Source of the DNA: an uncultured Verrucomicrobiae bacterium
GTDB lineage: Bacteria; Verrucomicrobiota; Verrucomicrobiia; Palsa-1439
DNA length: 64,000 nt
Direction: 5' to 3'
NCBI GenBank assembly: GCA_963812605.1
Contig: CAWEWF010000013.1
Location: 30,735-94,734 of the forward strand
Position 1 is the first letter of the stretch, and each line of letters opens with the position of its first letter. The notes beneath the pieces are model-generated. The model searched no databases, was not told the origin of the DNA, and saw only the letters and a program-made list of their open reading frames with translations. Positions 14,999 to 23,220 of the stretch are shown in pieces. A program made the position numbers and the translations under genes.

Positions 14999-15123
14999 GG
15001 TAACAGTCTAGGAACGCTGCGGAATCCTTGCAAGTCCCGAATCCATTGTTGCGCAATCAGTTTCATTCCCAAACCGCCCCCCGCTGGCCTGAATCGTGCT
15101 TTTCATTGTCCGAGGCAGCATCT

Positions 15124-16512
15124 ATGGGCATAGCTGACGTTCAGCATACTGAGGAACTGACGGTCGGATTGGAGTCGGATAGCGCGGCTGCGCCCGCAAC
15201 CCCGGCCGATTCGATTGCCCCGCTTTTTACCAATCCCGCCGACTGGTTTGTTCCCGCGTTCCCGGAAAAACTGGAGGACCTCGATGTCAACCCCGGCTTC
15301 CTCGCTGACCTGGCGCTGAAGGTCGTCCCGCTCGACACGGATTGCAACACCTTCAGCATCTCGAAACGGCTGCGGCTGGGCATGATGATCACCGAGGCGC
15401 TGCTCCAACGACTGTGCCACGAGAAATTCATCGAGGCCAAAGGCGTCGTCGGCTTGCACAATCATCGCTACGCGATGCTCGATCACGGGTGGGAGGCGTT
15501 GCGCCGCCTGACCAGTTTTTGCAGCTACGCCGGGCCTGCCCCGGTCTCGCTGAAGGCCTACACGGAAATGATTACGCAGCAGGTCCGCAACCGGCCGCCC
15601 TCCTCGCGCCAGGCGCTCGATCAGGCCATGTCGAATCTCATCCTCTCGGACTACGCCAAGGAAATCCTCGGGCTGGTCGTCGGTTCGGGCCGCAGTTTGT
15701 TTTTGACCGGGCCCTCGGGTAACGGCAAGACCGCCATGGCGCGGTCGCTGGTCGACGCGATTCCAGGTGAAGTTTGGATTCCCTACGCCATTGAAGTCGA
15801 TGGTCAGGTCATCCGCATTTTCGACAGCCACAACCACGTGCCCGTCCAGCACTCCAACGACGATTACGACCGCCGCTGGATACGCGTCAGTCCGCCCTTG
15901 GTGGTCGTCGGCGGCGAGCTGACGCTGCAAAGCCTGGACCTCGCCTTCACCGAGACGCAGCGCTTCTACGAAGCTCCCCTGCACATCAAATCCAATGGCG
16001 GCGTGCTCGTGGTGGATGATCTCGGCCGCCAGCGCTGTTCGGCCACCGAGCTGCTGAACCGCTGGATCGTCCCGCTGGAGTATCGGGTCGATTACCTCAC
16101 CTTGAGCACCGGGAAAAAAATCCAGATGCCCTTCGAGCAGATCGTGGTTTTCGCCACAAACCTCGTCGAATCCGATCTGGACGATGAAGCGTTCATGCGC
16201 CGCATGGGTTACCGCCTCCACGCCGAAGCCCCCAGCGCCGAGACTTTCACGGAAATCTTCCTGCGCTACGCCCGCTCGCGCGGTCTTGCCGCGGACGAGA
16301 ACGTGGTGCTGCAGTTGCTGCAGAAGTACCAGGTGGAAGGCCGGATCCCGAAATCCTGCGACCCGCGCGACCTGATCGACCGTGCCATCGACCGCTGCCG
16401 CCTCCACAAGCAGGCCCCCAAGTTGACGCCCGAGGGACTGGAAATCGTCTGGAACGGCTATTTCGGCCGCCCCGGCACCGACCCCAAACGCCCCACGCAA
16501 GCCCGCGCCTGA
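15124..16512 (+). CDS. AAA+ family ATPase of unknown function
   Basis: GPSGNGKT, LVVDDLGRQ, NRWIVPLE, FATNL, AFMRR. Confidence 0.85.
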   Translation: MGIADVQHTEELTVGLESDSAAAPATPADSIAPLFTNPADWFVPAFPEKLEDLDVNPGFLADLALKVVPLDTDCNTFSISKRLRLGMMITEALLQRLCHEKFIEAKGVVGLHNHRYAMLDHGWEALRRLTSFCSYAGPAPVSLKAYTEMITQQVRNRPPSSRQALDQAMSNLILSDYAKEILGLVVGSGRSLFLTGPSGNGKTAMARSLVDAIPGEVWIPYAIEVDGQVIRIFDSHNHVPVQHSNDDYDRRWIRVSPPLVVVGGELTLQSLDLAFTETQRFYEAPLHIKSNGGVLVVDDLGRQRCSATELLNRWIVPLEYRVDYLTLSTGKKIQMPFEQIVVFATNLVESDLDDEAFMRRMGYRLHAEAPSAETFTEIFLRYARSRGLAADENVVLQLLQKYQVEGRIPKSCDPRDLIDRAIDRCRLHKQAPKLTPEGLEIVWNGYFGRPGTDPKRPTQARA

Positions 16513-16518
16513 CCCATT

Positions 16519-16542
16519 AGTGGCGCGGGCGTCCCGCCCGCG
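16519..16542. repeat. REP-like GTGG palindrome (similar copies at 19158-19182 and 41441-41464)
   Basis: AGTGGCGCGGGCGTCCCGCCCGCG hairpin. Confidence 0.6.
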
Positions 16543-16694
16543 TCCTTCCATTTTCGGGTCATGTCGCTTATTTGACCCTTGCCATCGGCTGTGGTCCTTC
16601 GCCCCCGTTCCATCTACTTGGAGTGCTGCGACTCGTCGCAGCTTTGCTGTTCGTCGGTCGGCTGTCTCACACACCACGAAGTCGTTTTCACGCC

Positions 16695-16802
16695 AAACGA
16701 ACCCGATTGTAATCTTCACAATCTTGCCTTGCATCCACCTCCGCCACAATGATTTAACCCCTGTTTTCTCATAGAAACAAATCGGGTTCGTTTCGCAGAA
16801 AC
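16695..16802 (-). repeat. Dispersed IR element, copy A
   Basis: Perfect 14-bp IR AAACGAACCCGATT (16695) / AATCGGGTTCGTTT (16780), 71-nt loop, then CGCAGAAAC. Confidence 0.8.
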
Positions 16803-17137
16803 ACATGTTTTTCGCGCCTCCTCTCCTTGTCCGCCATAGCCCTGGCGGCGGCGGATTCGCGCAACAGCATCTTAACCACCGCGCCCAATAAGTCTTCATA
16901 AATTTCATCTGCATCCGCCCCGAGCCTAAATGATCTTCGACCCAAACCGTTATCGCACTTTGGAAGCTCTGGAAGGTTTGGAAGCTTTTCTATGAAAGGC
17001 CCGTAAACATCGGATTTTTTAGCGGACAAACTGCGCAGAAACCGGACCGCCGGGCGCCACTCACACGTACTCCGAAACCTCATGGGGCTCTGGTCGGGAT
17101 GGTCAAGACGGTTGAGTTTCATGGCGGCGTGTTGGCG

Positions 17138-17209
17138 GTCTAACGATCCAAACCTTAATAATTAGCGCAGTTGAGAGTGGACGCGGTTAGCTCCACCGAA
17201 TCGTTATGA
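17138..17209 (-). mobile_element. Degenerate attC-like site
   Basis: Minus strand: TCATAAC overlaps the gene stop, then GATTC-GGTGGAGC ... GGATC-GTTAGAC; next ATG 15 nt later. Confidence 0.4.
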
Positions 17210-17521
17210 TTCTTTCCGTATGAGAATAATCGCGGCAATTCCAAGAGCAATTACAAGGACGCCGCACAATAGCAGGGCTTCGTTTGCGCCTGAGGCATCG
17301 CGCGCTACGACTGACGCTAGCGAGGCAAACTCCAATGGAGTCATGCCGAGAATCTGCTGTGCGCCAGCAGATGTACCACTCTCGCGAAGCAACCTCTCGT
17401 AGGCGTAAACGTGGGCTTGCCGGAGCGCGGCGCCGTGACTACTGAGAAACGAAACGAAGACAATGCCGCAGCCAAGCACAACCTGAGCGATAAAGATAAG
17501 CTTTATGCCCCTCGTATGCAT
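17204..17521 (-). CDS. Small two-TM hypothetical protein (cassette-like)
   Basis: 105 aa, two hydrophobic helices, visibly lower GC. Confidence 0.6.
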   Translation of the reverse strand: MHTRGIKLIFIAQVVLGCGIVFVSFLSSHGAALRQAHVYAYERLLRESGTSAGAQQILGMTPLEFASLASVVARDASGANEALLLCGVLVIALGIAAIILIRKES

Positions 17522-17523
17522 TT

Positions 17524-17864
17524 ACAATTCCATTTCCAGTTTGTTGGGCGAATGGGGGAAATGGGGTCAGGTCTCAATATCAGACAATTCCATTTCCATT
17601 TTGTTTAGCGAATGCTGCGGTCTGGACATTCAACTGCATATTTCAGATTAAACGCCTGCTTGAACCCCGAGAACAGCACAAAAATATGCGCAATCCGCGC
17701 ACCACCACTTCCGACGAGAGGATGGAAATGGGGTCAGGTCTCAACATCAGACAATTCCGTTTCCAGTTTATTTGGCGAGTGCTGCCAAGTTTGAATGTTC
17801 AACAGCTTGTTTCCCACATTTCAGATTAAACGCCTGCTTGAACCCCGAGAACAGCACAAAAATA
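17524..17864. repeat. Imperfect tandem duplication carrying the GGGGTCAGGTCTCAAYATCA motif
   Basis: Motif at 17563 and 17730; identical 47-nt block at 17640-17686 and 17818-17864. Confidence 0.85.
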
Positions 17865-17889
17865 GGGCCCTACCGGCTCATCACCGGCA

Positions 17890-17918
17890 TTGACAAACGC
17901 CCTCCCGCCTGCTACAAT
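17890..17918 (+). promoter_or_regulatory. sigma70 promoter of the DAHP synthase leader
   Basis: TTGACA-N17-TACAAT with extended -10 TG. Confidence 0.8.
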
Positions 17919-17929
17919 CCTGCCCGTAA

Positions 17930-18016
17930 ATGAAGGCAATTTCTCAGCACGGCACCGCAGTTCAGGCATGGTATTGGTTTTACTTTAGCCAGCCCTGTCT
18001 GCGGGCCGCGTGTTGA
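17930..18016 (+). CDS. Attenuator leader peptide (28 aa) with a W-Y-W-F-Y-F run
   Basis: MKAISQHGTAVQAWYWFYFSQPCLRAAC*, between the promoter and the terminator upstream of DAHP synthase. Confidence 0.85.
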   Translation: MKAISQHGTAVQAWYWFYFSQPCLRAAC

Positions 18017-18036
18017 TGCCAGTAACGTTGACACCC

Positions 18037-18067
18037 AACCGTCCCGCGGAAGCGGGGCGGTTTTTTT
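18037..18067 (+). terminator. Attenuator intrinsic terminator
   Basis: AACCGTCCCGC-GGAA-GCGGGGCGGTT followed by a T run. Confidence 0.88.
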
Positions 18068-18108
18068 ATTGCCAAAACCGAACCGCGCGCGGGCAAAGGA
18101 ATGAAGAA

Positions 18109-19135
18109 ATGATCATCGTGTTACGACCGGGAACGAGCGAACAGGAAATTCAACAAGTGGCCGACGCCGTGAAGAAGTTCAATTACGAGCCGCGCCTGAT
18201 CCGCGGCGTCGAGCGCACCGTCGTCGCCTGCATCGGCGACGAACGCAGCCATCACACGCTGGAATCGCTCGTCGTCTTCCCGCAGGTGGAGAGCGTCACC
18301 CCGATCCAAAAGAAGTACAAACTCGTCAGCCGCGAATATCAGGCGCGTCGATTCCGTCCTCGACGTGGCCGGCCTCAAAATCGGCGGCGGCACCTTTCAC
18401 GTGGTAGCCGGGCCGTGTTCGGTCGAGTACGCCACCCAGACAATTGAAACCGCGAAAGCGGTGAAGTCGTACGGCGCAACGCTTTTCCGGGGCGGCGCTT
18501 TCAAGCCCCGCACTTCGCCGTACGACTTCCAGGGTTTGGGCCGCGACGGGCTGGAATTGCTGCAGCAAGCCCGCGCGGCCACGGGCCTGCCCATCGTCAC
18601 CGAAGTCCTGTCGCCGCAGGACGTCGAGTTGGTGGCCTCCTTCGCCGACATCCTGCAAATCGGCGCGCGCAACGCGCAAAACGTCCCGCTGCTCGCCGCC
18701 GCCGCCGCCTCGGGCAAGGTCATCCTCTTGAAACGCGGCGTCTCCGGCCTGGTCGATGAATGGCTCCTCGCCGCCGAATACATCTGCGTGCATGGCAACA
18801 GCCAGGTCATCCTCTGCGAGCGCGGCATCCGCACCTTCGAACACGCCTGCCGCAACACGCTCGACCTCAGCGCCGTCGCCGTGGCGAAGAAGGAAACGCA
18901 TCTGCCAGTCTTCGTCGACCCCAGCCACGCCGCCGGCCGGGCGGACATGGTCATCCCGCTGGCGCGCGCCGCCGTCGCCGTCGGCGCCGACGGCTTGCTG
19001 TTGGAAGTCCATCCCGACCCCGCCACCGCCCTCAGCGACGGCGGCCAGCAACTGAAGCCGAAACAATTCGGCCAGCTAATGGCGGAAATCCGCCCGCTCG
19101 TGGAAGTGATGGGAAAAAAATTCGGCTCCGACTAG
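18109..19135 (+). CDS. aroF: 3-deoxy-7-phosphoheptulonate (DAHP) synthase, type I-beta with N-terminal regulatory domain; frameshift near 18345
   Basis: MIIVL..., [54 protein letters not shown]. Confidence 0.92.
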
Positions 19136-19205
19136 TCGTGGTTTTCATAAAGCACGGGTGGCACAGGCGTCCCTGCCTGTGCGGATTCGGTATGGAAACC
19201 GTACC

Positions 19206-20317
19206 CTACGCCCGCGCCACGCGCCAGAGCAGCCACAAGCCGAGCAGTTCGAAAAACAGGTCCGGCGACCACATAATCGCGTCAGGATAAAGGTAGGGAC
19301 GGCTCTTGAGCGTGTTGGCGAGCACCGTCACAAAATAGAAACCGAGCGCCAGGAGAATGCTTAGAGCGATGCCGACCGACGTTTCGCGCCGACTGGTCTT
19401 GATCCCCAGCGGGATGCCGATCAAGGTGAAGGCCAGGCACGCGACCGCGCTCGCCACGCGTTGATGGGCTTCCACCAGCGCGGCGGCGGGATAAATCCCG
19501 CGTTGGCGCAAATCACGAATTTCACCGAGCAGTTCCTTAAAGACGAGATCGCCCAGTTGCCGGCTCGCCTTGGCCTGTCGCAACGCCCGGCTCAGGTCCA
19601 TCTCGATGGGATAGCGGGCCGCCGTGGTGTCGGGACGAATCTTGTGGACGTTGGTCGGGTCTTTCGCGTCGCGCAAATCCCCGCGGACATTATACAGGTC
19701 GAGCATCAGCTTGTGCTCTTCCGGTTTCGCGGTGACGAATCCTTTTTCGGCCCGCAGGCTGGAGAGGACATTATTGCTGTCGTCGAGCGTGTAGAGCATC
19801 ACGTCCTCGATCCGGTTGTCATTTTTCCGGGCCACATACATCACGTAGCCGGGAAAATCCTTGATGTACGTTCCTTCCTGGATCAGCGCCATCGGCCGTT
19901 CCGAGCCGAGCCGCACGAACATCGTCTTGAACTGGAATTTGCAATAGGGCGCGAGGTCCGCGTTGATGTACAGGCACAACACGCTCATCAGGGCCCCGAG
20001 CAAAATCACCGGCGCCACCACCTGCCCGAGGCTGAGCCCGAAGCGCGCATGGCGGTGATTTCGTGGTCGGCGCTCATCCGACCGTAGACCAGCAGCGCCG
20101 TCGCCAGCATCGCCATCGGCAGCGAAAAACCAAGGACGTTCGGCGTCACGAGCAGGATGAAGTACCCGATAACGTCCAGGCCCACCTTCTGGTTCACCAG
20201 CATATCACTGAGTTGCTTGAGGATTTTTGCCAGGAGCAACACGAACGTGAGTACGCTGATCGTGAAAAACAATGTAATGACCGCTTGCCGTGTGATGTAC
20301 TTTGAGAGAATCTTCAT
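19206..20317 (-). CDS. lptF: LPS export permease LptF/LptG; frameshift near 20040
   Basis: MKILSKYI, LPMAMLA..L..YGRMSADHEITAMRASG, AFTLIGIPLG. Confidence 0.8.
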
Positions 20318-20322
20318 GCGCT

Positions 20323-23220
20323 GTGGGTACGACTAACAACTTTTCGGCTCCAACGCCACGCAAAATCCATCTCGGCCCATTTCAGCCGACGCTCGAAACC
20401 GCCCTGGCTGCGGATATCCTGGCATTTCGGAACAAGAACGGCCCGCTCGCGCCACTCACCATCGTCGTTCCCACCCGCTTGCTTGGGCTGCATTTGCAAC
20501 GAAAACTAGCGCGAGTGTTGACCAGCGGCCATGCCAATTTGCGTTTCAGCGCGCTCGAGGACCTGCTGCCGCCGGCGCGTCTCGGCCCGCGACTGGGTCT
20601 CGAACTCCTTTGCGGCGAAATCGCGAAAAATGAAATCCCGGCGAATGGTTATTTTGCGCCCGTGCGTGAAACGCGCGGCTTCCGCAACGCCCTGCTGGAG
20701 ACGTTCAAGGACCTCGAACAAGCGGGCCAGACGCCCGACGCATTCCGCAAGGCCGCCGGCGGGTCGCCAAAGCTCGCCGAATTGGCCGCCGCCTACACCG
20801 CATACCGCAAGTGGCTTACGGAGCATGATTTCGTTACGGAACCCGATCTGTACTTGAATGCCGAGATCACCGTTCCGAAGTCCGCCGTTCTGCTGTACGG
20901 CTTCTATGATCTCACCACTGTGCAGCGCCAATTTGTGAGCAGGCTCGCTCCAACCACGGTCTTTTTCCCGTGGACAGCACCCAACGCCTATGCGGAGCCG
21001 CTTCTCGATTGGTTCAAGTCACAGGGCTACCAGCCCGTCGCGCCTCCGCCGGCGAAAAGCTCTCCACCGGCCACGATTCTTTCCTGTCCGGGTGAAACGA
21101 GTGAAGTCCAGGAAGCCTTGCGCGAAGCGCTGGCGTTCGTGAGGAAAGAGGGCCGGACGTTCAACGATGTGGCGATCCTCTGTCGCAGCCGCGAACAGTA
21201 CGACGCGGTGCTGCGCGACACGCTGGCGAACCTCGGGATCAAAGCCTATTTTCGCGGAGGACGCCCGCTCGCGGAACAAAGCGACGCGCGTCTGCTGTTG
21301 CTGCTGCTGGAAACGATCCATTCCGATTTCAGACCGGGCGACGGTGATGGAACTGGCCGGCCACCTGACCCCGAGTTCGCATTGGGACGCGCTCTCGGTG
21401 CAATTGGGCATCGTGGGCGGACAAGAGCAATGGCTGACGCGTCTGGAAGCCGTCGCCTCGGAACCGCCCCGCGAACGGCGCAACCCGGATGACGCTCGTC
21501 GTCGCGAATGGCGTCAGCGTACCGCCCAGCAATCCCTCGCCTTCATGAAACAACTCATCGCGTTGCTCGGCGGCTTGCCGGATGAGGCGGGGTGGGGGGA
21601 GTATGGCGCGAAACTCGTCCGGGCTTTTCGCGCGCTGGGCGGAAAAAACGAAGCCGTGATCGATTGCGTCGAGCAACTCGCCGGATTGGAAGTGTTTCAA
21701 CCGCGCGTGCCGTTCGACACGTTTGCCGAGTACTGCCAAAAGTCGCTCGAATCGGCGATGGACCAACCCGAGAAATTCCAGGGCGGCGGCATCTTCGTCG
21801 GCGACGTGATGAGCGCGCGCGGTTTGTCGTGGCCGCTGGTGATTGTGCCGGGCCTTGTCGAGAAACGGTTTCCCCGTGTCATCCGCGAAGACCCATTGTT
21901 GCTGGATGACTGAACGCGCGCGGGTCAACGCGGAACTGCCGCGCAAACTGGACGGTTACGATGAGGAGCGGCTGTTGTTCTCGCTCGCCGTCGCCGCTGC
22001 CGGCGAGCAACTCGTTTTGAGTTATCCGCGCTTGGAACCCGCCACGTCGCGTCCGCGTCTGGCGTCGTTCCTGTTGCTGGAATACGTCGGCGCCACCAGT
22101 TTCCCGGCCTTGGACAAACTGTCGCGCATCATCCCGCTCTCGCCGGTGCGCGCCGTTGACGAACCGCTAACCGAGCGCGAGTTCGACCTGACCGCGCTGG
22201 CATCGTTGACGGATCAGTCGCCTTATCTGCGCCAGGTATCGCCGCTGCTGGCCGACGGTGTGATCCATGTCCACACGCGCTGGCACGAACACCAGCTCAC
22301 ACTGTACGACGGATTGCTGGGCGGTCCCGAGGCATTGAAACTCCTTCGCGATCGGTTCGGCCTGGAGAAACTCATCATTAGTACCACGTCCCTGGAGGAT
22401 TTCTTTGGCTGTCCGTTCTATTACTTCCAGAAACACGTGTTGGGCATTGAACCGTGGGAGGAACCCGAGGCCGCGCTTTCCATCAACGCCCTCGATCTCG
22501 GCTCGCTCTATCATTCGATTCTGGAAGACTACTACAAATCGCACGCGCACGACGTTGTCGCGGTGGCCGAAAAACATTTCCGCGAATTCGAGCGGCGCGG
22601 TGTGACGGGTTACCCGACCGTTTGGGAGATCAAAAAACAGGTGATCGTTGAGGAAGTGGGCGCCTTCGTCGAACGCGATCGTGCAACCGCCGCCGGTTGG
22701 CAGCCCGCAAAGTTTGAGGAGGAATTCAACGGCATTGCCGTCGCGCCGCCAATACGCCTGCGGGGCAAAATCGATCGCATCGACCTCCGTGACGACGGTT
22801 CCCGGGCACGGGTCGCTCGACTACAAGACCGGCAAGCAGCCTCGGGGGGTGCGTGACGACTCATTCGCGGGTGGCGAAGCGCTGCAATTGCCGTTATACA
22901 TCCTCGCGGCGCAACAGTTGCTGCCAAAAACCTTGGTCGAATCGGCCAGTTACCTCTACTTCACGTTGCGCGGCGGCTATCGCACCGTTACCTTCACGCG
23001 TGGCGCGCTGGATACTCGACGCACCGAACTCACCAGCCTGTTGGATACGGCCGCCAATCTCATTCGCAGTGGTATCTTCGCGCAGTACGCCACCGTGGAA
23101 GGCTGCCGCCGTTGTGAGTTCCGCCCCATCTGTGGCAACGGCATCCTGAAACTGTACGACTTGAAGCACGAAGACGCGCACATGGAAGCCTTTCGCGCGA
23201 TCAAGGAAGAGGTGAAATGA
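20323..23220 (+). CDS. addB: AddB-like helicase/nuclease subunit with PD-(D/E)XK Fe-S nuclease; three frameshifts; start uncertain
   Basis: IVVPT, ARGLSW..V.VPGL.E..FP, EERLLF, GCPFYYF..HVLG, LRGKIDRID, DYKTG, LQLPLY, CRRCEFRPIC. Confidence 0.8.

Follow-up and report, generated by a model that had tools for sequence, protein, structure and literature searches.

We analysed a 64,000-nucleotide (nt) stretch of contig C13 (hereafter the window; coordinates are positions in it unless another contig is named) from the 4.17-Mb, 15-contig assembly of an uncultured Verrucomicrobiae bacterium, whose nearest named records are metagenome-assembled genomes of Verrucomicrobiia from peat and soil. [quoted passage not shown] This unit is very probably a classical ribosome-mediated (leader-peptide) transcription attenuator acting on the DAHP synthase gene of this soil or peat bacterium. 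A first-pass annotation, made from the letters of the window, had proposed that a type I-beta DAHP synthase is controlled in this way; the proposal is now backed by the PF18152 and PF00793 domains of the encoded enzyme and, in related genomes, by a conserved uORF, a conserved frame and conserved helices.

The target gene (18109–19135, forward strand) encodes an N-terminal ferredoxin-like domain (PF18152, E = 1.9e-18) followed by a DAHP_synth_1 catalytic domain (PF00793, E = 3.7e-80). By this domain composition, it is a type I-beta DAHP synthase with a ferredoxin-like domain, the entry enzyme of the shikimate pathway. Its ATG lies about 40 nt beyond the T tract of the upstream terminator and is preceded by a Shine-Dalgarno sequence, AAGGA, at 18096–18100. 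The gene is monocistronic, the next gene (LptF/LptG permease) being encoded on the other strand. Genes for prephenate dehydratase (PDT), prephenate dehydrogenase (PDH) and tryptophan synthase alpha (TrpA) are present in the genome; since all three terminal branches are represented, this DAHP synthase plausibly feeds each of them.

A sigma-70-type promoter with a TG extension, TTGACA-17-TACAAT, occupies 17890–17918 and matches 11 of 12 consensus positions; two such sites are seen in 2.5 kb, against 0.8 expected. Its -35 hexamer (17890–17895, forward strand) is invariant in 30/30 aligned relatives, as are the first two bases, TA, of the -10 hexamer (17913–17918, forward strand) throughout the alignment. 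The -10 box is followed after 11 nt (about 8–11 nt across the alignment) by the ATG of the uORF, ahead of which there is no Shine-Dalgarno sequence. Because the interval from the -10 box to the ATG is this short, the uORF mRNA is probably leaderless or nearly so, and its translation would begin accordingly. The uORF itself (17930–18016, forward strand) consists of 28 codons and a TGA stop and specifies the putative leader peptide MKAISQHGTAVQAWYWFYFSQPCLRAAC. Codons 14–19 (17969–17986, forward strand) are TGG TAT TGG TTT TAC TTT, that is, W-Y-W-F-Y-F. To gauge how unusual this is, the whole genome (4.17 Mb, both strands) was scanned for short open reading frames with at least four of six aromatic residues followed by a terminator. 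Five candidates were returned, among which the DAHP synthase uORF alone has an ATG start and alone has six consecutive aromatics; the arrangement of an aromatic uORF and a terminator exceeds chance. No other convincing aromatic leader was found by this whole-genome scan.

Folding of the 188-nt leader yielded -73.2 kcal/mol, compared with -60.1 ± 3.9 kcal/mol for shuffled sequences (z = -3.4), and none of 200 shuffles was equally stable. All structural segments lie on the forward strand. In the fold modeled without a ribosome, segment 1, the 5′ arm of the anti-antiterminator (17944–17960), pairs with 17999–18016 to form a long hairpin around the aromatic codons, and the terminator forms as well. 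The terminator hairpin (18037–18062) has 11 pairs, 8 of them G-C, is followed by a T7 tract and reaches -22.0 kcal/mol when folded alone. Its 5′ arm, segment 3 (18037–18047), is common to the antiterminator, while segment 4 (18052–18070) comprises the 3′ arm (18052–18062) together with the T tract (18061–18070). Segment 2 (17998–18008), with its CUGCGGG core, has either segment 1 or 18040–18050 as its partner. When only 17995–18051 was folded, corresponding to a ribosome on the aromatic codons and a segment 4 that is not yet made, a single hairpin resulted, with 17998–18008 paired to 18040–18050. An apical hairpin of 9 bp (18010–18018 with 18026–18034) encloses the uORF stop codon and stacks on the segment 2:3 helix, giving an antiterminator of -22.8 kcal/mol. 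Segment 2 begins 12 nt after the last aromatic codon.

The anatomy expected of a leader-peptide attenuator is therefore found in full: a uORF placed directly after a promoter and ahead of a biosynthetic gene, a cluster of six W/Y/F codons in a row that are cognate to the end products of the pathway, an intrinsic terminator lying between this uORF and the gene, an antiterminator that uses the 5′ arm of the terminator, and an upstream segment able to sequester the antiterminator. Much of this had been anticipated by the first-pass annotation. The promoter lies where it had been placed, the unannotated 28-residue reading frame carries its six aromatic codons at exactly 17969–17986, and folding reproduces the mutually exclusive 1:2, 2:3 and terminator stems. 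The description of three stems stands, with one refinement, namely the extra 9-bp hairpin that forms the apical part of the antiterminator.

Conservation was analysed at DAHP synthase loci of related genomes. A search with the catalytic domain matched 47 of 61 such genomes at E ≤ 1e-40; 30 loci from this search, the window's own among them, make up the family alignment, and three more complete a set of 33. A uORF with at least four of six aromatic residues lies just upstream in 29 of the 30 aligned loci, and the thirtieth reads ...AWFDLYL... (W-F-x-x-Y). Across the larger set, the aromatic uORF is present at 32 of 33 loci in the forward direction versus 0/33 in the reverse complement, and 20 rounds of shuffling gave a mean of 0.5 and a maximum of 2. 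The start column holds ATG in 28 and GTG in 2 of the 30 sequences, and the stop is TGA in 30/30. From start to TGA, the number of nucleotides is divisible by three in 30/30 loci, which show seven different lengths between 69 and 93 nt. Relatives carry WYWFYF, YYWFYF, WFWFYF, FGFYFYF or WFYFF as their aromatic run, and among the 33 leaders Y and F are present in all 33 and W in 31. These are signs of translation, because the frame is kept through insertions and deletions and the run varies by synonymous and aromatic-to-aromatic changes. The preserved frame and this pattern of substitution indicate that selection acts on the uORF as a reading frame.

A second constraint is visible at the RNA level. 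Conserved blocks stand out in the alignment: the invariant -35 box, the first two bases (TA) of the -10 box, the ATGAA that opens the uORF, the CUGCGGG of segment 2, a GUUGA carrying the stop codon, and the terminator. The codons of segment 2 do not vary at any of their three positions, which points to RNA-level constraint there. At every scored locus the stop is TGA, with the T tract beginning 42–51 nt later (34 loci). Pairing in the 30 sequences was assessed against registers in which the 3′ partners were slid by 1–3 columns: 98.8% of cells are paired in the terminator helix (34–58% when slid), 86.2% in the antiterminator helix (38–51%) and 79.8% in the 1:2 helix (35–42%). In the 1:2 helix, 12 pairs are altered on both sides, and the observed values were reached by 0–2 of 500 shuffles, a count to be read with the caveat that related sequences can outscore shuffles even without structure. 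The apical hairpin is paired in 80–85% of cells in relatives, most of its substitutions turning wobble into Watson-Crick pairs.

To follow the leader further, a covariance model (R1; 144 positions, 41 pairs) was used. It gave one strong match per genome (E = 1e-13 to 1e-38) in 36 of the 47 genomes of the order. All strong matches fall within the window's family (f1), and the model missed the two genomes that belong to other families of the order. Wherever coordinates were compared, the matches adjoin the 5′ side of the DAHP synthase gene. Family genomes with no match mostly lack an orthologue or have it at a contig end. Two loci show other states. G064 (L178, G064:C4) has undergone a deletion of the leader, so that the same promoter directly adjoins the GTG with which DAHP synthase starts; in G061 (L179, G061:C150), the uORF is gone, the apical hairpin and terminator are kept, and a cold-shock protein gene lies upstream. 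At the level of the order, the relative G037 carries MIRYGQSGWFYGFYFTKPGLLALS and a terminator.

The class was sampled with 201 genomes, 84 of which have the enzyme at E ≤ 1e-60. Among 57 further loci (55 outside family f1, plus G064 and G061), an aromatic uORF with at least three aromatics per window of eight residues and a terminator 36–55 nt past the stop was found at 12, from 10 families, versus 0/57 in the reverse complement. Three more loci have partial leaders, one cut by a contig end, one with F-T-F only and one with no T tract. The minimal distant version is L-Y-F-W. Many of these class-level leaders finish in ...L-R-x-x(-x)-stop, and they look homologous to the window's leader because this L-R ending reflects the conserved CUGCGG segment. 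A rough, midpoint-rooted FastTree tree of 177 catalytic domains places the Verrucomicrobial enzymes in a single clade of 90 members (support 96), to which all 47 loci with a leader and 42 without one belong. The tree suggests that the leader was present early in Verrucomicrobiia, with losses afterwards.

A parallel arrangement occurs in Acidobacteriota. Among 78 loci from a collection scan outside the close relatives, 65 have the ferredoxin-like domain and sufficient upstream sequence; an aromatic uORF is present at 35 of these 65 in the forward direction versus 4/65 in the reverse complement (shuffle mean, 1.85). Thirty-three of the 35 are among the 47 scanned Acidobacteriota-labelled loci (Bryobacterales, Terriglobia, Acidoferrales and others). 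None was found in the scanned Blastocatellia and Pyrinomonadaceae loci, nor, with two doubtful exceptions, in 14 scanned loci that carry other labels (Bacillota, deltaproteobacterial groups, Planctomycetes and others). The Acidobacteriota leaders (L057–L131) read ...S-F-(S/R)-F-R-F-W-x-F... and start about 11 nt past a TATACT box. Their terminator, CCCACTCG-loop-GAGTGGG with a T tract, lies 48–77 nt past the stop in 30/30 examined loci. The stop codon coincides with a copy of the terminator 3′ arm, GAGTGGCG, which could serve as an antiterminator; in 17 of 30 loci it outscores 95% of shuffles. Like the window's leader, these have W/Y/F codons, a near-leaderless start, a terminator past the stop and the same enzyme type downstream, but their stem sequences (CCCACTCG/GAGTGGG) are their own and a conserved Arg codon lies within the run. 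The acidobacterial leader-bearing enzymes lie in a clade apart from the Verrucomicrobial one (FastTree). Judged from these sequences, the Acidobacteriota leader probably has an independent or else a very old origin.

Based on the observed anatomy, conservation, frame preservation and gene identity, we propose a mechanism for the window's attenuator, to which translation of the uORF, stalled ribosomes, the kinetic order in which the stems fold and a response to each amino acid are added by inference. Transcription would start a few bases ahead of the uORF ATG. When charged Trp-, Tyr- and Phe-tRNA are ample, the ribosome would reach the TGA at 18014 and cover segment 2 together with the 5′ half of the apical hairpin. 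With segment 2 covered, the 18037–18062 hairpin and its T tract would form, and transcription would stop. Termination is also predicted if the uORF is not translated, in which case segment 1 would sequester segment 2. A stall at any of the six aromatic codons (17969–17986) would instead block segment 1 and leave segment 2, at least 12 nt downstream, free. The freed segment 2 could then pair with the 5′ arm of the terminator as this emerges, forming the antiterminator (-22.8 kcal/mol); because this would happen before segment 4 exists, RNA polymerase would continue into the DAHP synthase gene. Whichever codon of the run is hungry, the ribosome would stall upstream of segment 2, which makes it plausible that the leader acts as an OR gate, with a shortage of Trp, Tyr or Phe alone being sufficient.

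The computational tests that the first-pass annotation had called for all spoke for the attenuator: a uORF is conserved upstream of related DAHP synthases at 32 of the 33 family loci, the 1:2, 2:3 and 3:4 folds were all obtained, and the three helices are conserved. Several observations weigh against this interpretation. First, when the leader was folded statically with a mask the size of a ribosome over each aromatic codon in turn, the terminator remained the minimum-energy structure. As the terminator is kept under every mask, the switch must depend on co-transcriptional kinetics if it operates as proposed, and we infer that it is kinetic in nature. Covariation is seen in the 1:2 helix, with its 12 two-sided pair changes, but little of it can show in the nearly invariant terminator and antiterminator: shuffles reached the observed scores in 200/500 cases for the terminator and in 87–494/500 for the antiterminator. 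The support for these two helices is conservation more than covariation because they are nearly invariant, a likeness in which kinship has a share. Second, the locus is not covered in two metatranscriptome runs, which hence lend no support from expression or 3′ ends; in the search of sequencing runs, at most 0.21 of the sampled words were shared.

Third, the assembled DAHP synthase gene contains an extra base, C at 18349 (window 18340–18352), that shifts the frame between the ferredoxin-like and catalytic domains; the linker there measures 25 nt in the assembly versus an in-frame 24 nt in relatives. If this frameshift is real, the attenuator here precedes a pseudogene. It is probably an assembly error. 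A contig from a 90–95% identical relative (one of two short pieces of relatives, from two DNA runs) lacks the base at 18349. Moreover, neighbouring and other genes are split as well, which makes assembly indels the likelier cause: the LptF/LptG gene (19206–20317, reverse strand) is broken into two overlapping open reading frames, a PD-(D/E)XK / AddB-like nuclease gene (20302–22856, forward strand) is spread over three overlapping frames, and trpA (G000:C5:335211–335977, in the window's own genome) is in two pieces.

Finally, some of the evidence bears on how many amino acids are sensed. The aroR leader peptide (Phe-Tyr-Phe) of Corynebacterium glutamicum precedes aroF, which encodes one DAHP synthase of the two in this organism; as described in a 2025 review and a 2013 paper, a ribosome that stalls when Phe is limiting enhances transcription, whereas Tyr availability is without effect despite the Tyr codon. 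Closer to the window, W is absent from two of the 33 family leaders, and the order-level relative G038 has F-T-F only. These points favor the best-surviving alternative, in which the attenuator is the same but does not work as a three-way OR gate: an effective stall would come from just one or two aromatics (e.g., Phe, or Phe and Tyr), and the other codons would be tolerated because aromatic codons interconvert by single-base changes. The drift of W, Y and F counts among relatives fits this alternative, yet W, Y and F are all retained in 31 of 33 family leaders and also in distant class-level versions, and a mixture of F, Y and W is also seen in the leaders of Acidobacteriota, which are built independently. 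We consider the restriction to one or two aromatics rather unlikely. The broader proposal, that mixed W/Y/F leaders on leaderless or near-leaderless transcripts constitute a widespread, undescribed shikimate gate, a true three-tRNA OR gate on the committed step that has arisen at least twice (in Verrucomicrobiota and in Acidobacteriota) before the same ferredoxin-like DAHP synthase, is one that we advance tentatively and regard as possible, with somewhat more doubt than belief.

The remaining alternatives depart further from leader-peptide attenuation. The strongly conserved L-R-A-x-C end and TGA of the family leaders would suit a TnaC-like arrest peptide, in which the C-terminal ...FSQPCLRAxC-stop stalls the ribosome on a free ligand and tRNA charging is not sensed. 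However, the C-terminal codons are invariant at all three positions and coincide with segment 2 and the apical stem, as RNA-level constraint predicts, and distant leaders retain the aromatic run and the stems although their ends read …LLALS, …ERLSG or …RVWPD; an arrest peptide is accordingly very improbable. We give equally little credence to an independent small gene, encoding a micro-protein or a small RNA and lying next to a DAHP synthase gene that is served by another promoter. The unit does have its own strong promoter and terminator, and attenuator-derived RNAs and leader peptides that can act in trans are described from other bacteria. Incidental juxtaposition is, however, hard to square with the interval of about 40 nt from the T tract to the ATG, in which no promoter-like site was found, with the single strong copy per genome, located before DAHP synthase at the compared coordinates, or with the fusion of the promoter to the DAHP synthase start codon in G064, from which it follows that the leader promoter drives the gene. 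Least probable of all is a protein- or ligand-controlled switch between terminator and antiterminator (T-box, TRAP-like or riboswitch) to which the uORF is irrelevant: alternative structures alone do not identify a sensor, but no Rfam family, T-box included, matches, the frame is kept through insertions and deletions in 30/30 loci, and it is the aromatic identity of the codons, not their sequence, that is conserved.

Leader-peptide attenuation has a second representative in the same lineage. The weak secondary matches of the covariance model are Leu leaders (MKRNLNLLLALLALLRLASETAG) before leuA, and a genome scan for single-amino-acid runs returned a Leu leader only. In the window's own genome, the Leu-rich leader MNCNLGLSLALLALRFASETVG (G000:C4:38375–38443, forward strand), with a promoter and a terminator, precedes leuA, and the same kind of Leu leader occurs in G013 (L132) and G021 (L133). 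The Leu leader resembles the aromatic one in its promoter (TTGAC...CCTGCTACA), in an ATG that follows the -10 box after ~11 nt, in a TGA located within GGnTGA and in a terminator about 50 nt further on; it differs in having Leu codons, other stem sequences and another target gene. The presence of this leader before leuA indicates that leader-peptide attenuation from near-leaderless transcripts is a habit of the lineage.

The surroundings of the DAHP synthase locus include several further features. The gene upstream (15028–16512, forward strand) encodes a 494-residue protein with a weak AAA_16 ATPase match only; it is syntenic in several relatives, and its C-terminus is seen upstream of their leaders. 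Just 5′ of the promoter, the intergenic stretch 17524–17864 contains three families of direct repeats (31–62 nt, 87–98% identical, spaced 60–178 nt). Tandem Repeats Finder made no call at 17000–18000, the repeats there being dispersed direct repeats. The start codon of DAHP synthase is overlapped by a three-codon mini-ORF, ATG AAG AAA TGA (18101–18112), which relatives do not share and which is probably incidental. The genome also encodes a second DAHP synthase with a ferredoxin-like domain (G000:C4:262091–262810, reverse strand), which is about 58% identical to the first and lies directly downstream of a hisC-like aminotransferase gene, about 5 kb from pheA. A leader peptide was found before this paralogue at 0/6 loci examined.

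The regulatory domain of such a DAHP synthase reportedly responds to Tyr and Phe in the Thermotoga enzyme. If the broader proposal is true, the leaders would add a Trp-sensitive transcriptional layer to DAHP synthase, and the element would be an example of one leader peptide that integrates three end products at the common entry step of a branched pathway. It represents a concrete, testable regulatory element in two abundant and poorly studied soil phyla, for which nature supplies controls, namely a relative with a clean leader deletion and the promoter fused to the gene, and others with reduced runs (Y-F-W, F-T-F). For genome annotation, the leader is a possible seed of a new RNA family and a reminder that the conserved 140-nt stretch before these DAHP synthase genes encodes a micro-ORF.

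In its architecture, the window's leader closely follows trpL-trpEDCBA and pheL-pheA of Escherichia coli. Common to them are the 1:2, 2:3 and 3:4 stems with a T tract, the regulatory codons located before segment 2 and a stop codon placed such that the terminating ribosome covers segment 2. The E. coli leaders differ in that each senses one amino acid and controls a terminal branch, not the common entry step, whereas here the uORF begins 11 nt past the -10 box and has no Shine-Dalgarno sequence. Single leaders that mix codons for several end products of a pathway are known from enterobacteria, in thrL (Thr and Ile) and ilvL (Leu, Val and Ile), whose logic, all versus any, has been settled by experiment. 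These concern other amino acids and another pathway, and for the aromatic leader the logic is deduced from its layout.

A search of Rfam with 16500–19500 at E ≤ 10 returned only four chance-level matches to unrelated families; the Trp, Phe, His, Leu and Thr leaders, T-box and riboswitches were unmatched there, and 18 related loci gave 0 matches at the gathering threshold. A literature search, whose coverage largely excluded subscription journals and supplements, found no such leader for Verrucomicrobia or Acidobacteria. A 2005 paper predicted attenuators of unspecified type before aroA(I-beta) operons in a few bacteria. The nearest counterpart is aroR of C. glutamicum, which is likewise a ribosome-mediated attenuator with mixed aromatic codons on a DAHP synthase gene. 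Compared by description, the window's leader is distinguished from it by six codons that include Trp, by a ferredoxin-like I-beta enzyme, by a monocistronic target and by its occurrence in Verrucomicrobiota; homology of the two leaders is unlikely because both phylum and enzyme subtype differ. The first-pass annotation knew of no described W+Y+F leader on this gene or in this lineage; a leader on DAHP synthase as such, however, has its precedent in aroR. Collectively, the mechanism class is textbook and the DAHP synthase leader has one precedent, while novelty appears to lie in the six-codon W/Y/F composition, in the ferredoxin-like I-beta enzyme as target, in the near-leaderless start and in the phyletic spread.

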